In this document: piece after piece, positions 308 through 26,600 of the stretch
Layout of the letters: every line of letters starts with the position of its first letter
Position numbering within the stretch: the first letter of the stretch is position 1
From: Verrucomicrobiota bacterium
GTDB lineage: Bacteria; Verrucomicrobiota; Verrucomicrobiia; Opitutales; Opitutaceae
Assembly: GCA_023426435.1 (NCBI GenBank)
Contig: JAFAAS010000018.1
Location: 3,490 to 67,489, forward strand
Direction: 5' to 3'
Length of the DNA: 64,000 bases
The notes under the pieces: model-generated
The model's database searches: none
What the model saw: only the letters and a program-made list of their open reading frames with translations
Told to the model about the DNA's origin: nothing
Translations under genes and position numbers: made by a program

Positions 308-502
308 ATGAACGACTCACTCGAAGAAATCCGCAAATTGCTGCGCGAAGTTTTCACGACGCCGGCAGCAGTCGAAACTTGGCTCGACACCCCCGACCGC
401 CGCTTCGCTGGTCGCACGCCGCGCGAAGAACTCTCGACGCCGGGCGGCGCTGCACGCGTGCGCGCGCTCGTGCTAGCCGCGATACACGGCATCCCGCCGT
501 AA
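308..502 (+). CDS. Small stand-alone DUF2384-like protein (64 aa)
   Basis: An ATG at 308 lies inside the 137..502 ORF, 9 nt after the preceding stop. The product is MNDSLEEIRKLLREVFTTPAAVETWLDTPDRRFAGRTPREELSTPGGAARVRALVLAAIHGIPP. It repeats the WL.tP...f.GrtP.e.l....G...v...L pattern of DUF2384. Confidence 0.5.
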   Translation: MNDSLEEIRKLLREVFTTPAAVETWLDTPDRRFAGRTPREELSTPGGAARVRALVLAAIHGIPP

Positions 503-705: not shown

Positions 706-1830
706 ATGAATACTACTCAGCACGCGCAACAACACATCGTCGATCCAGCTCTCATTCCCGAAGAAGACAAAATCCCGCTCGGGCCCGTCGAGCACGGCGA
801 GCTTAGTCACGGAGACTGGAATGCTGGCGGGACAAAACGTTTTTGGGGCATGCGAAAGGGACGCCCGTATTTTGTTACGACTGAGAAATTTGCGGAATTA
901 ACCGCGCGCAAAAACGAAGACGAAGCGCGTCGTCGCGAAGAGCTTAAGGGCACGCTTCGTGGCGAGGCGCTGACTATGTTGTATCAAGCGCGTTCGCGCA
1001 GTCGCGACGAAGAGAACGGTATCTGCACGCTGACTGTAGAAGATATCGAACGCAAAATCATCGAGACGTGCGGCATTTGCCCGATCTTAAAGATTGCTTT
1101 TCAGAAACATACGAAATTCGCGATGTCGATCGATCGTGTGATCCCTGAATTGAAATATATCGCAGGGAACATTCGCATTATTGCCTTGATTTGCAACGAG
1201 TTGAAGGGCGCTGGAACGGACCCTGAGGTGCTCCGGAAACTTGGGCGATGGAAACTGTTTCTGGAAGCGCAGAACGCTGCTGATGCTGTGCAAGACGACG
1301 AGTCGTTTTTCGCGGCAAAAGTGAGCGATCACGTCGATGCGATCGCCGGCTTGCGGAGCGGAAAACCGCTCGTGCAATCGACGCACAAACCGAACCGTCG
1401 GTTCGGGCCGGAAGCATATGCTAAACGTTTGCTCGATAGCGCGTTGAAAAAGTTCAGCGCCGCGCCGAGCGGCGATGCGCTCACGATCGCCGACGTTCTC
1501 GATCTGCTCGCGCGCGCGGGCGGCCGCTGCCCTGTGACCGGCGTCCGGTTCGCTCGATCGAACGGCGTCGCTGGCACTGATCCGCGCGACCGCGCGGTTT
1601 TGCATGTTATCGTTGCATCCCGCGGTCTCGTTCGCGGCAACGTGCGCATCGTGAGCATTCGCGCATCTGAATACGCGCACAACGTGCTCACGTCTGCGCA
1701 AATTTTTGCGACAGCGGATTACATCGCGAGCAATCAGATCGAAGTGCGCGAGCATTACACGCAGCTCGCGCAGCAGAAGCCTGCTGCGGTCGAACAACCC
1801 GCAGCGGCGACGACGGAGGTCGCGCTATGA
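706..1830 (+). CDS. Protein with two tandem degenerate HNH-like (SIDR-type, phage HNH endonuclease-like) modules
   Basis: An ATG at 706 (MNTTQHAQQ) is preferred over the Arg/Pro-rich extension from 379. Module 1 is TLTVEDIERKIIETCGICPILKIAF...SIDRVIPELKYIAGNIRIIALICNELKG. Module 2 is ALTIADVLDLLARAGGRCPVTGVRF...VLHVIVASRGLVRGNVRIVSIRASE. Both follow the phage pattern CP..G..f...s.DRid...GY..gNv.viS..aN..K, with the catalytic His replaced. Confidence 0.6.
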   Translation: MNTTQHAQQHIVDPALIPEEDKIPLGPVEHGELSHGDWNAGGTKRFWGMRKGRPYFVTTEKFAELTARKNEDEARRREELKGTLRGEALTMLYQARSRSRDEENGICTLTVEDIERKIIETCGICPILKIAFQKHTKFAMSIDRVIPELKYIAGNIRIIALICNELKGAGTDPEVLRKLGRWKLFLEAQNAADAVQDDESFFAAKVSDHVDAIAGLRSGKPLVQSTHKPNRRFGPEAYAKRLLDSALKKFSAAPSGDALTIADVLDLLARAGGRCPVTGVRFARSNGVAGTDPRDRAVLHVIVASRGLVRGNVRIVSIRASEYAHNVLTSAQIFATADYIASNQIEVREHYTQLAQQKPAAVEQPAAATTEVAL

Positions 1831-2432
1831 GCTCCGATTTCGCGCCGCTCTCGCTGCTCAAGCACGCGTCTGAATGTCGCTCGTTTTTGCCTACGATCGT
1901 CGTCGATTCTCGCGAGCAAACGCCGCTCATTTTTTCACGCCTCGCTGCGCGATACCTGCGCGGCGAAGAGGGCGAAGGGCTCACGAGCGGAGACTACTCA
2001 ATTTCCGGACTCGAAGATCAGTTCGCAATCGAACGCAAATCTGTCGCTGATCTCGTCGCGTCTGTCACCCGCGAACGCGACCGCTTCTCCCGCGAACTGC
2101 ATCGACTTCGCGGCTACCGTTTCGCGCGCGTTGTCGTCACGGGAACTCGTGCGCAAATCGCAGCAGGGGAATATCGTTCGCGCGCAAATCCAGTCGCAGT
2201 GTTGCACAGCATTTCAGCCCTCGAGGCGCGCTACGGTATCCCGTTCGTGTTCGCCGGCGACGAGCATCGCGCCGCCGGCGCGATCGAGGGATGGGCTTAC
2301 TGGTTCGCTCGCGCGATCGTCGACGAGACGAACGACTTGATCCGCGGCATCCGCGCAACCGCCGCCGCCCCGGCCCCCTCCGAGCCCCCCGCGCCCGGGG
2401 CGGCGAACGGCGCTAGTGTTATTGCTGCGTGA
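1827..2432 (+). CDS. ERCC4-domain (XPF/Mus81-type) nuclease
   Basis: Contains VVDSREQ, GDYSI and IERKSVADLVASV, the ERCC4 nuclease signature (D.RE ... GDY ... ERK..DL..S). Its ATG overlaps the upstream stop as ATGA at 1827-1830. Confidence 0.8.
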   Translation: MSSDFAPLSLLKHASECRSFLPTIVVDSREQTPLIFSRLAARYLRGEEGEGLTSGDYSISGLEDQFAIERKSVADLVASVTRERDRFSRELHRLRGYRFARVVVTGTRAQIAAGEYRSRANPVAVLHSISALEARYGIPFVFAGDEHRAAGAIEGWAYWFARAIVDETNDLIRGIRATAAAPAPSEPPAPGAANGASVIAA

Positions 2433-2433
2433 A

Positions 2434-3318
2434 ATGAATTCGACTACGCAATCAACACCTACGATCTCTCCGGAAGCCATCGCCGCGGCCCGCGCTGCGA
2501 TTCTCGCCGAATTCGGCAACGACGTCACGTTCCGCATGTCGCACCTGCCCCCGGTCGTGCACCACGCCGCTCCTTCTCCCGCACCGGCACCGGCGCCTGC
2601 GGCAGCACCGGCAGCCCCGGTTCCGGCGGCAGCACCGGTAGCCAGCGTTCCGGTTCCCGCTGCTCCGGCACCGGTTCCGGTTCCGGGCGCGCAAGCCGGC
2701 GGCGACGAGCCGTATCGCTTGCCTTATCTCGTCGTCGTTCGTGGCAATGGCGAAGCGGTGAAGCGCCACCCGCGCTCGATGGGCTGCCTCGAGTATGACA
2801 AGCGCACGATTCTTGAAAAATGCTTAATGATACCCTTCGGTTTCAGGCGCTACTACGAAGAGTGCCGCCGCGGTGGCCGCCCGGTGCATTATCGCGACAA
2901 AAAACGCTGGTCGTGCTTCGCAGACGCATCGATTGAAGGCTACAACACGTTTTCGCGCGATCGGAATGCTGCGAATCTCGTCGATCCCGTCGGCGTCTTG
3001 GAATGCCTCGTTTCCGGGCCGCCGAGCGACGTCAGCGGGGATTTTTGGCTCGAGGTCGGCGATGCGCGCTATGCGCCGGCGCAAGTGCCGATGCGGCACG
3101 GGGAATACCGGCTGGTTTTCGACAAATTGCGCTCTGCTGGCGTGCGCGACGAAATCACCGGAATCCCGGTTTATTCGCGTATTCACGAGCTTGTGACAGC
3201 TGGGGACAAATTTGAGATCACGGCGAAACCCATCGCGCTAACGACAGATGCTGAACGCGAGCGAATCCGCAGTGCGATGACAGCGCTGTTGGGCGCGCGT
3301 TTTAAAAGCGGCCTCTGA
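2434..3318 (+). CDS. Hypothetical protein with an Ala/Pro-rich linker and an unrecognised C-terminal domain
   Basis: The ATG at 2434 lies 1 nt after the ERCC4 stop. A long PAPAPAPAAAPAAPVPAAAPVA linker (about 2570-2690) precedes a roughly 200-aa Cys- and Arg-containing domain with no motif I recognise. Composition is coding-like. Confidence 0.55.
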   Translation: MNSTTQSTPTISPEAIAAARAAILAEFGNDVTFRMSHLPPVVHHAAPSPAPAPAPAAAPAAPVPAAAPVASVPVPAAPAPVPVPGAQAGGDEPYRLPYLVVVRGNGEAVKRHPRSMGCLEYDKRTILEKCLMIPFGFRRYYEECRRGGRPVHYRDKKRWSCFADASIEGYNTFSRDRNAANLVDPVGVLECLVSGPPSDVSGDFWLEVGDARYAPAQVPMRHGEYRLVFDKLRSAGVRDEITGIPVYSRIHELVTAGDKFEITAKPIALTTDAERERIRSAMTALLGARFKSGL

Positions 3319-3367: not shown

Positions 3368-3757
3368 ATGAATACACCTACCGCGCCTGCTCCTTCTCGC
3401 TTCGCCTCAGCCATTTTCGGCAAACACGACGAAATGCAATGCATCTGGTCGCTCTGGTGGCTCTCTGTCGCCGCGCAGTCGCTCGATTTGCTGACGACGT
3501 GCAGCAATATCGCAATCGGCATGTCTGAAGCTAACCCTGTGTCCGCCGGCATCCTCGCCGCCCGCGGCGACATCGGATTCGCAGCGGCAAAGGTCGCAGT
3601 ATGCGCATTCGTCGCGTTTCTCGTTGTCTGCGTGCAACGCGGAGACGATCACAAAAAAGCGAGGGCGGCTCTCGCAATCGCGGTGTGCGTTGCGCTCACA
3701 ATGAGCGCGGTTTTCTGGAACGTCGCTGTCGCGTGTTACGCGCTGCTCGACGCTTGA
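3368..3757 (+). CDS. Small integral membrane protein, DUF5658-like
   Basis: Has 3-4 hydrophobic helices and the SEANPV motif (E.NP) typical of DUF5658. Confidence 0.5.
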   Translation: MNTPTAPAPSRFASAIFGKHDEMQCIWSLWWLSVAAQSLDLLTTCSNIAIGMSEANPVSAGILAARGDIGFAAAKVAVCAFVAFLVVCVQRGDDHKKARAALAIAVCVALTMSAVFWNVAVACYALLDA

Positions 3758-3803
3758 GGCGCAGCCGAAAAATCGATCGGTCGCGGTGTTGTTATCTGTC
3801 GAG

Positions 3804-4019
3804 ATGTCGCACTCAGCACTGACATCTGCCAGCAACTCGAATCGACTGCTCACTTCTAGCGAAGTAATGCAGCGACTCGGCTACAAATGCCGCAAAGCGT
3901 TTTGGCATCTCGTCTACTCACAAGGACTACCATGCGTGAGGCTTAACGCTCGTGTCATACGTTTCGCGCCTTCTGCAGTCGAAGCGTGGCTATGTCAGCG
4001 TAGCAGCGACGCGAATTAA
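3804..4019 (+). CDS. AlpA/excisionase-type HTH DNA-binding protein
   Basis: LLTSSEVMQRLGY...LPCVRLNARVIRFAPSAVEAWL matches the Phage_AlpA / MerR-like excisionase pattern. It is adjacent to and convergent with the integrase. The ATG at 3804 is preferred over the GTG at 3786. Confidence 0.65.
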   Translation: MSHSALTSASNSNRLLTSSEVMQRLGYKCRKAFWHLVYSQGLPCVRLNARVIRFAPSAVEAWLCQRSSDAN

Positions 4020-5488
4020 TCAGATGCGTCTGGCGTGAAGCTCGCAGGCGCAAGGTTCGCGAGCGCAATCATCGGATCCGCTGCTGCGATCTTCGCAGCT
4101 TTCGCCGCTTTCGCTGCCCGCGCTTTCGCGAGGTTTGCCGCGATCGCAGCCAGTTTTTTCGGCGATGCGCTTTTCCCGCCTGCGGCGCCGTTTTCGGCAG
4201 CGGTCTTTTGGGTGAGACGCTCGTAGTGCGTCCGGCAATACTCGGGCGTAAGCTGATACCATTCGAGCGCTTGAGCGTGATCGACTTCTGCGCGGTAGTG
4301 TCTGTGAATTTTAGCGACCGAAGTGCCTGCATCTGCCGCGATCGCATCGATCTTCTTTTCGATCTGCATGCGGTAGCTGATGTAACTGTGCCTGAAGCAA
4401 TTTTCGGGCAGCTTTAATCCAAGATTTTGCCCGATGGCTCGGATACGATCGAGCGCGTGCCTCTCGCAAATACATCCCTTTCGCTGCTCCTCCGGCACGG
4501 TCGCGAGCCATGCAGCAACCCATGGTAGAATTGGCACCTTTCGGCGCGACGGTGTGTTTATTTTCGCAGCTGTGACTCGCAAAAACGGAGACTCTGATTT
4601 GTCGGCTGGCTCGAGATGGATGTCGGACCAAAGCTGACGCAGTTGCTTGCGCGTCTTTTCGCCGCTCTGCGAATTGAGCTTCTTTTTCCCGCTACGTTTG
4701 CCGTGAATTTCATCACTGCGAACTCCTAAAGCGGCAACCGCAAGCGGAGCGACGTAATGCGGGTGATAGTCGCGCAAATACATCAGCAGCTGCCCGAGCG
4801 CTTTGGGCGTGCATACGCCCGGCGGCGAAGGATCCTCGCGAGCGCGATCAACACGCGAAATCGCGGTCACCTTTTCCGCCGGCAGATACTCTTTTCGGAG
4901 CGCCCAGTTCCAGAGTGCTGTCGCTTTTTTTCGCAGATCGTTGCGCGTCACGCCGTTGGCCCAGCGTTGAAAAAATATCTCTAACTCAGCTGGGCTGATC
5001 GTATCCAGAAACCGGCTACGGAATGCAGTCGGATCGTCTTTCTTCGCGAGCGGCGAGAGCTTTGCTCGATAGGTCCTCTCGTATTGCAACCCACGCGATT
5101 CTCCCGCCGCGATGAACTCGTCGATCGCGTCTTCGATTTTGATGCGATTGAACCCGAGCAGTTGCTTCTGCTCGTCCTTCGCCGCGCGCCACTCCCGCAA
5201 TGCAATTAGGGGTGTGGCATCGTTGCCGACGAGCTTGCGCAGCAGCAGGAGCTCGTCGCGGTCCTCTTTCGTCATTTGCGCAGATTGCACCTCGCCGACC
5301 GCTAACTTGCTCATGTGCAGATCGAGCGCGTCGCGCACTTTTTGAAGCTGCGTCGATTGCTTGATCGTCTTGCCGCCGCAAACTGCTTTGAACACGTAGC
5401 CGCTTGCACTCTCAGCGTGAACGAAACGGAAGATCGTTCCAGCGATCGGACCTTTCTTAACGTGAAGCGGAAATTCAGGTTTAGGCAT
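4016..5488 (-). CDS. Tyrosine site-specific recombinase (phage integrase family)
   Basis: Has the C-terminal catalytic region ...NCFRHSYISYRMQ... and ...GTSVAKIHRHYRA (R..H..R / HxxR...Y motifs), an N-terminal SAM-like/arm region, and an unusual Ala/Lys-rich tail (AKARAAKAAKAAKIAA). Confidence 0.9.
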   Translation of the reverse strand: MPKPEFPLHVKKGPIAGTIFRFVHAESASGYVFKAVCGGKTIKQSTQLQKVRDALDLHMSKLAVGEVQSAQMTKEDRDELLLLRKLVGNDATPLIALREWRAAKDEQKQLLGFNRIKIEDAIDEFIAAGESRGLQYERTYRAKLSPLAKKDDPTAFRSRFLDTISPAELEIFFQRWANGVTRNDLRKKATALWNWALRKEYLPAEKVTAISRVDRAREDPSPPGVCTPKALGQLLMYLRDYHPHYVAPLAVAALGVRSDEIHGKRSGKKKLNSQSGEKTRKQLRQLWSDIHLEPADKSESPFLRVTAAKINTPSRRKVPILPWVAAWLATVPEEQRKGCICERHALDRIRAIGQNLGLKLPENCFRHSYISYRMQIEKKIDAIAADAGTSVAKIHRHYRAEVDHAQALEWYQLTPEYCRTHYERLTQKTAAENGAAGGKSASPKKLAAIAANLAKARAAKAAKAAKIAAADPMIALANLAPASFTPDASD

Positions 5489-5864
5489 TGTTGAAGCGGG
5501 CCAGGTCAGCCTATCCAGAGATAACTAAGAATTTCTAAGAAGAACAGCGACTAATTCACACCTACAAGTCCCTTCTTTCCGTTGGTTTCTTGCAGAACCT
5601 AGTTGGCGGAAAGCCTTCGCATCTATCGTTCCGGTCGCGGTTTACGTCGTAGTTTGCCCGAGCGCGCAAAGCGCAGCTTAATTCCCCGTGAGGGCGCCAA
5701 CTCAACCTCTTCTCAGAGGTCAACATCGTCGGAATCCTCCGCGATCGTCGGCGCCCGGCGAACAACGACACAGCGCCCCGCCACGCTCCCGCCCACGGGG
5801 CCGTTCAACCCCATGAATTTCCCGCTGTTCGTCATTCCCGCACACGCCGTTTCCGTTGCGAAGA

Positions 5865-6732: not shown

Positions 6733-8175
6733 ATGTTACCCCGCCCGCCCCGCTCGCTCATCGGGTCCGCGTCGAAAACTTGCACGCTGCTCAGCTTCGC
6801 CGTTCTCGCCGCCGCCGCGCCGTTGCTCGTTGCCACCCCGGTCGGACCCGGCGTGCTGCGCGTTCATCCCGAAAACCCGCGTTGGGTGACCAACGACACG
6901 GGCCGCGCAATCTTCCTCACCGGCTCCCACACGTGGGCAACCGTGCAGGAGCGCCAGCTTCCTGAAACACCCAACTTCAACTTCGACGAGTGGCTCGATT
7001 TCACCACCGGCCACGGGCACAACTTCCTGCGCGTTTGGGTCTGGGAACACGCGTCGTGGATGCAGTTCACCGAGCGCATGGTCCGCTACTCGCCGACTAT
7101 CTACGAACGCACCGGTCCGGGCAACGCACTCGACGGCGAACCGAAGTTCGACCTCACGCGTTTCAACGACGCCTACTTCAGCCGCCTCCGCGAACGCGTG
7201 CTCCGCGCCAACAAGCGCGGCCTCTACGTCGCCGTCATGTTCTTCCAGGGCTTCAGCCTCGACAAAACCGGCGGAAAACCCGGCCTGCAGAAAGCCTACA
7301 ACGGCCACCCATATCACCGCGCCAACAACATCAACGGCATCGACGGCGATCCCAACGGCAGCGGCACCGGCCTGCAGGTTCACACGCTCGACAACCCCGC
7401 CGTCCTGAAAGTCCAGGAAGCCTACGTCCGGAAGATGATCGATACGCTCAACGACATCGACGGCCTCGTCTGGGAAATCGGCAACGAGCTCCACGAAAAC
7501 GCCGTCGATTTCCAATACTACTGGATCGACTTCATCAAAGCCTACGAACGCACCAAACCGAAACAACACCTCGTCGGACTCACCGGCGCGCACGTCACCA
7601 ACGAAAAGCTCTTCGCGAGCAACGCCGACTGGATCGCGCCCGAAAAACAGGACGGCTACCACCACGACATCCCCGACGCCGCAGGCCGCAAAGTCATCAT
7701 CATCGATACCGATCACATCGAGTGGCTGAAATCCCGCGAAGATCCGACCCTCCCCTGGCGCGCGCTGATGCGCGGGACGAGTTTCATCTACATGGACACC
7801 TACAAGGACGCCCGCTTCGGCTCGCCTCCCGAGCCCAATGCCGAGGAAGCCGAAATCCGCCGCCAAATGGGCTTCGCCGCGCGCTTCTCGCGTCAGATCG
7901 ATCTCGCGCGTTGCATCCCGCACCGCGAACTCACCTCGAGCGAACACTGCCTCGCGCATCCAGGCCATGAATACGCCGCCTTCGTGCGCGCCGGGGAAAA
8001 ACTCCAGCTCGACCTCAGCGCCGCCGTCGGCGCCAAGTTCCGCGTCACGTGGTTCGATGGCCAGACCGGAGAATCGCACCCCGCCGAAAACGTCACCGCC
8101 CGCGCCGACCTCATCCTCGAAAACCCCTTCCCCTCCCACGCCGCCGTCCACCTCCAGCGCATCGAGAAAAGGTAG
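6733..8175 (+). CDS. Secreted clan GH-A (GH5-like / DUF4038-like) glycoside hydrolase with a C-terminal collagenase-type beta-sandwich
   Basis: Has a signal peptide, NFLRVWVW, and LVWEIGNELHE (the NE acid/base motif of (beta/alpha)8 hydrolases). The C-terminal FRVTWFDGQTGES resembles the WFDPRTGE motif of the GH140-type gene at 43179. Confidence 0.65.
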   Translation: MLPRPPRSLIGSASKTCTLLSFAVLAAAAPLLVATPVGPGVLRVHPENPRWVTNDTGRAIFLTGSHTWATVQERQLPETPNFNFDEWLDFTTGHGHNFLRVWVWEHASWMQFTERMVRYSPTIYERTGPGNALDGEPKFDLTRFNDAYFSRLRERVLRANKRGLYVAVMFFQGFSLDKTGGKPGLQKAYNGHPYHRANNINGIDGDPNGSGTGLQVHTLDNPAVLKVQEAYVRKMIDTLNDIDGLVWEIGNELHENAVDFQYYWIDFIKAYERTKPKQHLVGLTGAHVTNEKLFASNADWIAPEKQDGYHHDIPDAAGRKVIIIDTDHIEWLKSREDPTLPWRALMRGTSFIYMDTYKDARFGSPPEPNAEEAEIRRQMGFAARFSRQIDLARCIPHRELTSSEHCLAHPGHEYAAFVRAGEKLQLDLSAAVGAKFRVTWFDGQTGESHPAENVTARADLILENPFPSHAAVHLQRIEKR

Positions 8176-23600: not shown

Positions 23601-26600
23601 GTGGTGAGTTGAACCGGCGTGCTCGCGGCGGACACGTTACCAAGGCCGTCGGTCGCAGTGATCGTCACCGTGTAAGTCGACTCCGGCGAGAAGCCGTGGA
23701 GCGTGATGTCCGTCGAAGTCGACGTGGTCCAGAACTCGTCGTTCACATAGATCGTGTAGATCGAGACGCCCGAGCCCGCGTCCGTGGACGGCGTCCAGCT
23801 CACGTTCGCCGTGAGGTCGCTCGTCGAGCTCACCGCCACGTTGCTGGGAACGGTCGGAGGATCCGTATCCAAATTTCCCGGAACGCTCGCGAACTCGAAC
23901 GTGCCCGCGAGGACCGACGGCGGTCCCGCGACGACGACTTCGGGATAGTCGCTTGAATTCAAGCCGGTGCGCTGAATCAGCGGCGTCCACGCCGTGCCAT
24001 CGTTCGAACCTTCGAGGCGAAATGCCGAAGCGAGGATGTAGCTCGGGATTTCGAGCCGCACACCGGTGATGTAAACCGGACCGTTGTTGAAGCGGACGGT
24101 CATCTCCTGCGGATTCACGTTGGCGACGTTGTTCGCGTCGGCGGTGTTGATATACCAATGCGAGTTGACGTTGCGGTCGAAGACGAACGCCGGGCGATCC
24201 TGCGCATTGATGTTAGCTGTGCTGCTGCTGATCGTGTAATCGGCATTGCCGGTGTTCGAGGTCGGCACCGTGAGCGGCAATTGGTTCTCGCCGGAGAGCA
24301 ATCGCATCTCGCGGAGGAAAACGCGTCCGGCATTCGTGCCGCTCGTCACGGCCGAGCCGTCGATCCAAAGTCGGAGGTATTGGTAGGGCTGGGCCACAGG
24401 AAGACCGCCCGAGGAAGAGCTGGAACTCGAGGAGCTTGAACTCGAAGAAGACGAACTCGACGAACTGGAAGAGCTGCTCGAACTCGAGGACGAAGAACTG
24501 CTCGAACTCGAAGACGAGCTGCTTGAGCTGGAGGACGACGAACTCGAGCTGCCACCGGGAGGCGGCGTGAATTCATACGTCGCCTGATCGACGCCGTCGA
24601 CGAGCGCGAAGTCGGGCAACGCGTCGTCGTCTTCGACGAGCGTCGTCCAGTTCGCGCCGTCGTTCGATCCGGAGATGCGCAGACCCGTGAGATTGTCGCT
24701 CCACGAGGCGCGCGAGATGCGGACGCCATTGGGCGAGATCGCGGTTTCGCCCAGATCCGCCGTGATGTGAACGGGCAACGGAGTCGTGCCGGAACTGATG
24801 AAGAAGAACGTCTGGTTCGATGCGTTGTTATGATCGAACACGCGCCACGCATTCCCGGGGAACGCGTAGTTGGACGTCACCACCACGCCCGCGGAGTTGT
24901 TGGACGTAAGCGGGGTCGTCGGATAACGCGTGCCGTCCACGAGCCATTCGATTTCGCCGATCTGAAGCTGGCCATTGCCCGCGAGCGCGGTCGCTTCGAA
25001 ACGCAGGTAGCGGTAACTCTCCGGTTCCGGCGGCGTGACGATGCCCGGCACATAACCCATCCGCGAGAGATCCATCTGGATGCTGCCGGTCGTGTTCGCG
25101 ACAAAGTAAACGCCGACCGCGTCCACGATCTCGCTCGTCGGCGCGATGGGCGCAGTGAACTCGACGGCGAAGTTGTTGCCGCCATTCGCCGTGAAATCCC
25201 ATTCCTGCCAGGTGGTCGCGGTCGTCGGCGCGAGCGGCCAGTCGCTGTCCGCCGTCGCAAACGATTCGACGGAGACGTAATACTTCCCGCCCGCGCGCAC
25301 GACTTTGTGAAACGCGCCTCCGGTGCCGGCGACCACGCGGGTCGACAACTCCAACTGCACGGTGTCGAACATGCCGGCGTCGCTCACCGGCCACAGCGCC
25401 ACCGCATGAGAGCGTTTCGCACCCGCGACGGCCGATTGAAAGCGAATCGCTTCGGGCGTGTCGTTGCGCAGCACCAGCGCAAGCACCGTCGAGCCAGGCG
25501 CAGGCGAAACATCGACGTCCATCACGAATCCGCCAAACGCGGCCGGCGCCGTGGCGCCAAAAGCGAGATCGCTTGTGCTGAAAGCGAGCAGTTCGCGCGT
25601 GTCGTTCGCGCCCGCATTGCCAAGTCCAAGATCGAGATCCGATGACACCGTGCCGTTCACCTGAACGTTGCTCGTCGTGTAGGCATTGAGCGTGCCGTCG
25701 AAGACGTGCGTCACCGTCACCGGCCCGCCACTCGACGAAGACGACGAGCTGCTGCTCGACGAAGAACTGGACGACGACGAACTCGAGGAGCTCGAACTGC
25801 TCGAGGACGATGAACTGCTCGAAGACGATGAGGACGAACTGCTGCTGGAGGAGCTCGAGGACGAGGAACTCGACGAAGACGACGTGCCGTCGGAGATCTC
25901 GACCGCGTTGACGGTGACGTCGCCGGTGCCGGCGATCTTCTGAACCGTCACACCGGAGAGGAAGTTCGCCGGGAGCGAGAATGCGTAGGCACTCGTCGAG
26001 GCATTGGAAACGGCGCCGGGCGTGTTGATGATTTCAACCAATTCTCCGTCGACCAGAATCGCGAAACTCGCGGCGCCTGAAGTCGAGTAGTTGATCGTCG
26101 CCGTGTAGTCGTCGCCCGCGACGCTGCGCATGAGATAACTCACGCGACGGCCGACGGCGGTGAGGACATTGGTGCCGTTGAACGGACTCACCGACCAGTA
26201 ATTGGTGCCCGTGAACGTGAACGGCAGCGTTTGCCCGATGTCGAGCGGACGCGCGTTGTTCGAGAGGCTGGCGTTGTAAAGCGCCATCGCGCGCGGCGTC
26301 TGATCCGAGTGCGTGCTCGGATCGATATGCCCGAAGCGGAAGTCTTGATGCCAGACGTAGGTCGTTTGGAAAACGCCACCGGTCTCCTCGAAGATCTCGT
26401 AGCTCTCGATCATCTCGGTGTAGAGCCGCGGATCGTAGAACGCCGGCTCCGCGAGCGGATGGGCCGCGGTCGAACCTTGCGGATCGCCGAACGCCGGACC
26501 GCCTTCGTAGGTGACGAACGGGATGCCGTAGGACGCGATCATGCGCGCATTGTTGGTCATCCGCGTCTTGAAGGTTTCGCGGTCCATCTGGCCGGTGGTC

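Follow-up and report, generated by a model that had tools for sequence, protein, structure and literature searches.

A probable recombination block in a Verrucomicrobiota prophage, with a stand-alone XPF/ERCC4-type nuclease and an uncharacterised partner family

The exo-bet-gam genes of phage lambda and the erf gene of phage P22 lie near the excisionase and integrase genes (xis and int), a place corresponding to that of the genes described here. In eukaryotes, single-strand annealing involves Rad52 together with XPF-ERCC1/Rad1-Rad10. A further arrangement, duf2800-gp2.5-polA, has been described as a conserved phage replication module (PMC8093625). Here we describe a trio of genes at positions 706-3318 of a 64,000-nt stretch of DNA (hereafter the window) from an Opitutaceae member of the Verrucomicrobiota (assembly GCA_023426435.1, contig JAFAAS010000018.1, positions 3,490 to 67,489). 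As in lambda Red exo-bet-gam, RecET of the Rac prophage, P22 erf and duf2800-gp2.5-polA, a nuclease is co-transcribed here with a probable single-stranded DNA (ssDNA) protein beside xis and int; relatives of that third protein hold the gp2.5 slot in other phages, and a sister element has an ERF gene in the same cluster. In contrast to these modules, the nuclease of the trio is an XPF/ERCC4 endonuclease rather than a 5’-3’ PD-(D/E)XK exonuclease of the lambda Exo, RecE or Cas4-like type, its candidate annealing protein matches no known family of single-strand annealing proteins (SSAPs) or ssDNA-binding proteins (SSBs), and there is an extra HNH-like gene. We conclude that an integrated temperate phage probably carries the trio as its recombination and DNA-processing block, in the early rightward operon beside xis and int.

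The three genes, all on the forward strand, encode proteins of 374, 201 and 294 amino acids (aa), here called P1 (706-1830; ATG at 706, TGA at 1828-1830), P2 (1827-2432; ATG at 1827, TGA at 2430-2432) and P3 (2434-3318; ATG at 2434). As read from the sequence, the P1/P2 junction (1815-1830) comprises a GGAGG at 1815-1819, a 7-nt spacer and an ATGA stop/start overlap at 1827-1830, and the P2/P3 junction (2430-2436) comprises a TGA, a single nucleotide (2433) and an ATG. Inspection of the latter junction detected no Shine-Dalgarno sequence upstream of the P3 start, and its layout would be consistent with termination-reinitiation. Independent gene calling on the source scaffold (ERZ28598286; metagenome, 121,910 bp) yielded the same three genes. 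The three same-strand open reading frames, the overlap and the 1-nt gap reported in a preliminary description of this DNA are real. That description had taken the tight packing as a sign of stoichiometric co-expression; however, both junctions are ordinary operon features, and they indicate the co-translation that is usual for early operons of phages, without implying a complex.

P2 matched the Pfam family ERCC4 (PF02732; 36.9 bits, cut-off 24), the PHROG family phrog_3490 ‘ERCC4-type nuclease’ (2e-19) and the nuclease domain of Pyrococcus Hef (1j22; E = 6e-5), as well as, weakly, the NCBIfam models for Hef and Xpf. An alignment of 11 sequences (P2 and ten relatives) showed residues D27, R29, E30, D56, E69, R70, K71 and D75 to be invariant. 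Because all eight catalytic residues are invariant, the predicted D.RE / GD / ERKx3D active site is intact, in agreement with what had been proposed for this protein at the outset. By its motifs, P2 is shown to be a stand-alone XPF/ERCC4-type endonuclease that should be catalytically competent, and the known specificity of the family suggests that its substrate would be branched DNA (flaps, forks and junctions). Pfam found the ERCC4 domain only, with neither a (HhH)2 (tandem helix-hairpin-helix) nor a helicase domain, and residues from about 165 to 201 form a Pro/Ala-rich tail.

The closest described proteins are the stand-alone phage nucleases of phrog_3490, such as gp42 of Bacillus phage phi105 and gp75 of Halorubrum virus HRTV-27, which like P2 consist of a single ERCC4 domain in about 145-200 aa, carry the same catalytic motif and lie inside replication/recombination modules of phages or mobile elements. 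P2 differs from them by a short insertion (ARYLRGEEGEG), by its Pro/Ala-rich tail and by its neighbours, P1 and P3 together being found only on the contig of the window. P2 resembles archaeal Hef/XPF and eukaryotic XPF-ERCC1 / Rad1-Rad10 in its nuclease fold and in having a GDxnERKx3D active site; unlike them, it lacks both the helicase domain and the (HhH)2 dimerisation domain, and no ERCC1-like partner is recognisable.

Although ERCC4 nucleases had been called uncommon in bacteria, stand-alone ones are rare in neither phages nor mobile elements: our scans returned 97 further loci with a P2 relative, comprising 28 viral, 9 reference-genome and 58 metagenomic loci (from scans of three collections) and 2 annotated phages. 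The closest relatives in reference genomes, at 50% identity, were found in metagenome-assembled genomes (MAGs) of Opitutales, in which the ERCC4 gene lies 13 nt downstream of a large PolA-type polymerase gene that itself follows a primase-polymerase gene. In a viral relative (44% identity), ERCC4 is part of a module with a Sak4-like SSAP, Mu Gam, a primase and a primase/helicase. At five further loci a RecD2-like helicase gene occurs immediately upstream, in 3/5 cases with a recognisable primase-helicase gene downstream, and phi105 has its genes arranged as SSB, primase, x, ERCC4. Across all 99 ERCC4 loci covered by a survey of local neighbours, ERCC4 had a RecD2-like helicase as a neighbour at 11 loci, a primase-helicase at 10, ERF at 4, and Sak4, PolA or Gam at 2 loci each. 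The neighbourhoods of P2 relatives, and those of the P3 relatives described below, are thus consistently ordinary phage replication/recombination modules.

The best metagenomic relatives of P2 (55% identity, full length) occur in three near-identical copies of one element (L062, L063 and L064), which is a sister of the element in the window: its integrase is 48% identical to that of the window over 447 aa, and the AlpA-like genes of the two elements are homologues. The gene order in the sister element is a probable metallophosphoesterase (read by eye from the sequence), a P1-like gene with a single module (hidden Markov model (HMM) E = 3.7e-17), ERF, a 118-aa gene, ERCC4, AlpA and integrase. 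The ERF assignment is supported by tblastn matches to 1,314 phage records, of which the listed ones are annotated as Erf (best E = 4e-28). The P1-like and ERCC4 genes therefore stay together in both elements despite about 50% protein divergence, whereas the third partner differs, being a classical SSAP, ERF, in the sister element and P3 in the window.

P3 consists of a short N-terminal segment (2434-2559), a Pro/Ala linker (2560-2694; about residues 43-87) and a C-terminal domain (2695-3315) that belongs to an uncharacterised phage family. The linker and the unrecognised domain had both been noted before, and this outline stood: P3 had no match in Pfam, PHROG, PADLOC or NCBIfam. A word-indexed search with full-length P3 retrieved P3 only, the Pro/Ala linker having probably saturated the candidate list. 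When the C-terminal domain was used as the query of an exhaustive HMMER search, six proteins of about 260 aa came up, with 27-36% identity. Large repeat proteins were discarded as relatives, their similarity being limited to a stretch of roughly 30 residues of P3. A profile search of the family returned 31 proteins, all unannotated; with three more from the HMMER search these make up the P3 family, and all come from uncultured phages. None of the PHROG models matched the family members, and tblastn searches of annotated phages with P3 and the family member P0031 gave no match.

The genomic context of the P3 family was looked up on six distinct phage-like contigs of 27-55 kb. In all of these (6/6), the family gene occurs in the order SNF2-like helicase, DUF2800 PD-(D/E)XK exonuclease, P3-family gene, a gene of ~70 aa and DNA polymerase A. 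Further downstream are a PDDEXK_5 gene (absent in one contig), a DUF5906 primase gene and, usually, a dGTP diphosphohydrolase-like gene (in L005, a deoxynucleoside monophosphate kinase gene), with an integrase gene nearby. Because this order matches that of the published duf2800-gp2.5-polA module, the P3 family fills the slot of Gp2.5, the ssDNA-binding/annealing protein of these modules. In the one module scanned for other SSB or SSAP genes, nothing matched the PHROG ssDNA-binding/annealing families.

The phages that carry the family (L005, L007-L012 and L045) are a coherent set, with sizes of about 27-55 kb and a helicase-DUF2800-X-PolA-primase module in common. For one copy, the contig has been assigned to an Ilumatobacteraceae MAG. 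Several of these phages carry a DUF932 gene, and two encode giant proteins (>2,300 aa) with ART-PolyVal or T4_Y16D domains.

We modelled the C-terminal domain of P3 with AlphaFold2 (31 sequences; mean predicted local distance difference test (pLDDT) 70.5, with core blocks mostly at 78-93). Compared with BFVD, the model resembled uncharacterised phage proteins (E about 1e-4), while matches to proteins named SSB or SSAP were weak (E > 0.3). One weak fold match was gp22 of Pf-WMP4, a replication-region gene that has no PHROG assignment and is uninformative in this respect. A profile search of the PDB with P3 found nothing.

P1 was proposed to contain a tandem duplication of an HNH-like module, and this was borne out by three lines of evidence. 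It matched phrog_3322 ‘endonuclease’ in two stretches (2e-19), in addition to phrog_1035 ‘endonuclease VII’ (4e-10) and phrog_3118 ‘HNH endonuclease’ (3e-5); its halves align to each other (BLASTP E = 7e-5); and the single-module relative in the sister element matches both halves (E = 3e-11 and 1e-4). Judged from these alignments, the internal duplication exceeds chance. The two modules, both predicted to be HNH/endonuclease-VII-like but His-less, span about 958-1263 and about 1411-1695. No Pfam or NCBIfam model matched P1, including Pfam HNH and Endonuclease_7. A word-indexed search with full-length P1 gave only P1 itself, and the viral-contig scan had no match to it. For P1, single-sequence AlphaFold2 gave a model too poor for use (pLDDT 39).

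In an alignment, the two modules of P1 were set against four free-standing relatives from phages and one true endonuclease VII. The general-base His is absent from module 1, which has D143-R144 (SIDRV, where endonuclease VII has IDH), and the motif is gone from module 2, with H300-V301 at the DH position; the alignment thus confirmed the earlier remark that DH is replaced by DR in one copy and missing in the other. The true endonuclease VII retains DH. The phage relatives have, family-wide, LD[K/R] in place of DH and AN in place of CN, and the P1-like protein of the sister element has ID-C at the DH position. Because the phage relatives and the sister protein also lack the His, its loss in P1 is, according to this alignment, a trait of the whole phage subfamily, with Lys, Arg or Cys at that position, rather than decay specific to this gene. 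The four-Cys zinc site (CxxC ... CxxC) is incomplete as well, with C122, C125 and C163 in module 1 and C275 only in module 2. Compared with T4 endonuclease VII and the phage HNH endonucleases of phrog_1035 and phrog_3322, the P1 modules keep the beta-beta-alpha-metal framework (CP.xG ... GN ... N..K), but have an Arg for the general base (module 1) or have lost it (module 2), as have their close phage relatives. In phages, modules of the P1 type are free-standing genes of about 145-170 aa that occur among DNA-metabolism genes, with neighbours including gp2.5-like SSB, exonucleases, phosphoesterase and endonuclease VII. The role of P1 is the least certain of the three; its motifs make an active nuclease less likely than either a relic homing endonuclease or an accessory that binds DNA.

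The setting of the trio is that of a prophage. The preliminary description had placed it on an integrative element, but the element is more than that: with a large terminase upstream, it is a prophage. The terminase (GpA_ATPase and GpA_nuclease, lambda GpA-type, 610 aa) is encoded on the opposite strand about 8.5 kb upstream of P1, and it is followed towards the trio by an opposite-strand block of genes for proteins of 117, 563, 231, 91 and 88 aa, the 563-aa protein being related to primase-like proteins that flank ERCC4 at other loci. Diverging from the 88-aa gene is the rightward operon, which comprises a 104-aa gene, a 161-aa gene, three 34-nt repeats, a metallophosphoesterase gene, genes for two small Xre/MbcA/ParS-C-like proteins, P1, P2, P3 and genes for a DUF5658 membrane protein and an AlpA-like helix-turn-helix (HTH) protein. 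The last of these, of the AlpA/excisionase-like HTH_17 type (77 aa; 3786-4019, forward strand; Pfam HTH_17, 6e-7), is the homologue of the sister-element gene mentioned above. The integrase gene follows on the opposite strand (4016-5488, reverse strand; 490 aa), so that the trio forms the int-proximal end of the early region. The integrase is of the tyrosine-recombinase type, with a weak match to phrog_1 ‘integrase’ (1.2e-4) and none to the Pfam Phage_integrase models at E <= 0.05, and it appears from its sequence to represent a divergent lineage. By eye, a tyrosine-recombinase-like RHS...HRHY motif can be seen in its C-terminal part. No gene for ERF, gp2.5 or Sak4 is present in the window or in the 10 kb that precede it.

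As a recombination block, the trio would divide its work as follows: P3 would bind or anneal complementary single strands, P2 would trim flaps or resolve the branches (flaps, forks and junctions) arising from P3 pairing, and the two would together act as a minimal single-strand-annealing machine in support of recombination-dependent phage replication or repair. P1 would serve as a non-catalytic DNA-binding accessory or be a relic homing endonuclease. The proposed pairing of an annealing protein (P3) with a flap-cutting nuclease (P2) would be the same division of labour as that between Rad52 and XPF-ERCC1/Rad1-Rad10.

Several observations weigh against this reading. Most of them concern P3, which itself follows an ERCC4 gene rather than DUF2800 and PolA as its relatives do, and which has no acidic C-terminal tail. 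None of its 31 family members matched Pfam DUF2815 (PF10991) at E <= 1, and in hhalign comparisons the family aligned with a 7-member T7 gp2.5 alignment at a probability of 2.6% and with a 4-member ERF alignment at 0.06%. Foldseek found no fold match for the P3 model in the PDB (best E = 0.4). In addition, the arrangement is not conserved. An HMM search found no P3-family gene near the other ERCC4 genes (0/97 other loci) and, reciprocally, no ERCC4 or P1-like gene near the other P3-family genes, and the gene order differs between the prophage in the window and the sister element. The exact trio is known only from the contig of the window, and the conserved three-gene cassette that had been envisaged for it does not hold. 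Finally, we found in the literature neither published biochemistry on a phage ERCC4 nuclease nor a functional study of an ERCC4-SSAP pair.

Because the direct homology tests were negative and the PDB gave no fold match, it is from gene position, and not from sequence or fold, that we infer P3 to be an ssDNA-binding or annealing protein. The preliminary description had left two options for the trio, a replication/recombination module or an anti-phage or anti-plasmid system; the contexts of the relatives, the prophage setting and the ERF of the sister element support the former and not the latter, and the defence reading fails by the refuting conditions which that description had itself set. A bolder version, in which the P3 family is a new and structurally distinct ssDNA-binding/annealing family that was recruited beside an XPF/ERCC4 flap endonuclease, giving an annealing-protein-plus-XPF pathway that mirrors Rad52 with XPF-ERCC1, is speculative and in our estimate rather unlikely.

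If the recombination-block reading is true, a prophage recombination module, in itself an ordinary kind of functional unit, has been built from unusual parts: an XPF/ERCC4 nuclease where the well-studied modules have a 5’-3’ exonuclease, and a partner family that is absent from Pfam and PHROGs. The P3 family would then be a candidate eighth family of the phage SSAP/SSB repertoire and raw material for recombineering tools, and the pair would offer a simple bacterial-virus system in which to study how an XPF-type flap nuclease works together with an annealing protein.

The alternative that survives best, which we consider possible but doubtful, is that the trio is no more than a set of co-transcribed neighbours, each gene having a job of its own. 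P1 would be a decayed, duplicated homing-endonuclease gene, P2 a branch-resolving nuclease serving phage replication or packaging, and P3 a protein with a role other than ssDNA binding, for example as a replisome accessory or in host takeover. Such a view fits with the free-standing modules of the P1 type, which are found inserted among varied DNA-metabolism genes, with the wide variation in P2 partners between loci, and with a trio that is not conserved and for whose third member neither profile nor fold comparisons gave a match to a known SSB or SSAP. However, P1-like and ERCC4 genes have been kept together in the sister element at about 50% protein identity, and the P3 family occupies the same slot in 6/6 contexts; the single module compared with PHROG had no further match to an SSB or SSAP. 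The tight coupling of the trio also fits a common operon function, although this argument is a weak one.

That the trio is instead an undescribed prophage-borne anti-phage or anti-plasmid defence system, in which an inactive HNH-like sensor or targeting subunit directs the ERCC4 nuclease under regulation by P3, is very improbable: the nuclease does look active, neither of its partners has an annotation, a pair of small Xre/MbcA/ParS-type antitoxin-like genes is found just upstream and prophage ends near int are common sites of defence cargo, but P1, P2 and P3 had no match in PADLOC-DB v2 at E <= 0.1, the relatives of P2 and P3 are located within replication/recombination modules rather than defence islands, the sister-element cluster includes the annealing protein ERF, and the trio was found nowhere else as a unit. 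The locus thus reveals no new kind of defence system.

Among the other features of the region, a DUF5658 membrane protein gene (129 aa; 3368-3757, forward strand) separates P3 from the excisionase-like gene. The sister element has no equivalent at that place, so this gene may be a moron. Just past the 5’ end of the integrase gene we found an 18-nt motif, TTCCCCGTGAGGGCGCCA (5682-5699, forward strand), that is shared with the sister element and is a candidate att core. Written as TTCCCCGTGAGGGCRCCA for window positions 5682-5699 and L063 positions 6927-6944, it has a CACCA or GCCA end resembling the 3’ end of a tRNA. ARAGORN and Rfam detected no RNA gene at the motif, the 20 kb available held neither a second copy nor a flanking direct repeat, and no tRNA was found at the prophage ends. 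Rfam searches of the window, of L001 (a locus that covers DNA upstream of the window) and of L063 were negative, and a scan for promoters and terminators gave nothing usable.

Two tandem small proteins with an Xre/MbcA/ParS C-terminal toxin-binding (DUF2384) domain are encoded at 69-299 and 308-502 (forward strand). One of them, of 64 aa, has a DUF2384 match at E = 2.7e-10, and the other, of 115 aa and starting upstream of the window, has a weak one. No RES or ART-type toxin gene was recognisable next to the pair; the next gene, after a gap of 204 nt, is P1. In the intergenic region upstream of P1 (583-652, forward strand) are two tandem copies of the 15-nt sequence TCGCGCTTTTTAGCG, both of them small palindromes (CGCT-TTTT-AGCG), and after these (GCGAGC)x4.5, which together are a possible operator or regulatory region.

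Repeats also occur elsewhere. The three 34-nt direct repeats of the rightward operon (CTTAAGTCGGGCGTTTATGT...GTGGCCCA), which separate the 161-aa gene from that for the metallophosphoesterase, are spaced by 52 and 125 nt (L001 5946-6156, some 1.4-1.6 kb before the first position of the window); they are iteron-like and may be an origin or operator array. Also upstream of the window, between the terminase-adjacent 117-aa gene and the 563-aa gene, are two 95-nt direct repeats (L001 578-672 and 761-855) that are 95% identical and bounded by inverted C5/G5-rich arms (CCCCCAGCTCCCCCAGC ... GCTGGGGGAACTGGGGG). Unrelated to the trio, an imperfect tandem repeat at 24434-24547 of the window (period about 42-45 nt, 2.6 copies) is rich in GAACTCGA(G/C)GA and probably encodes an acidic Leu/Glu/Asp-rich repeat.

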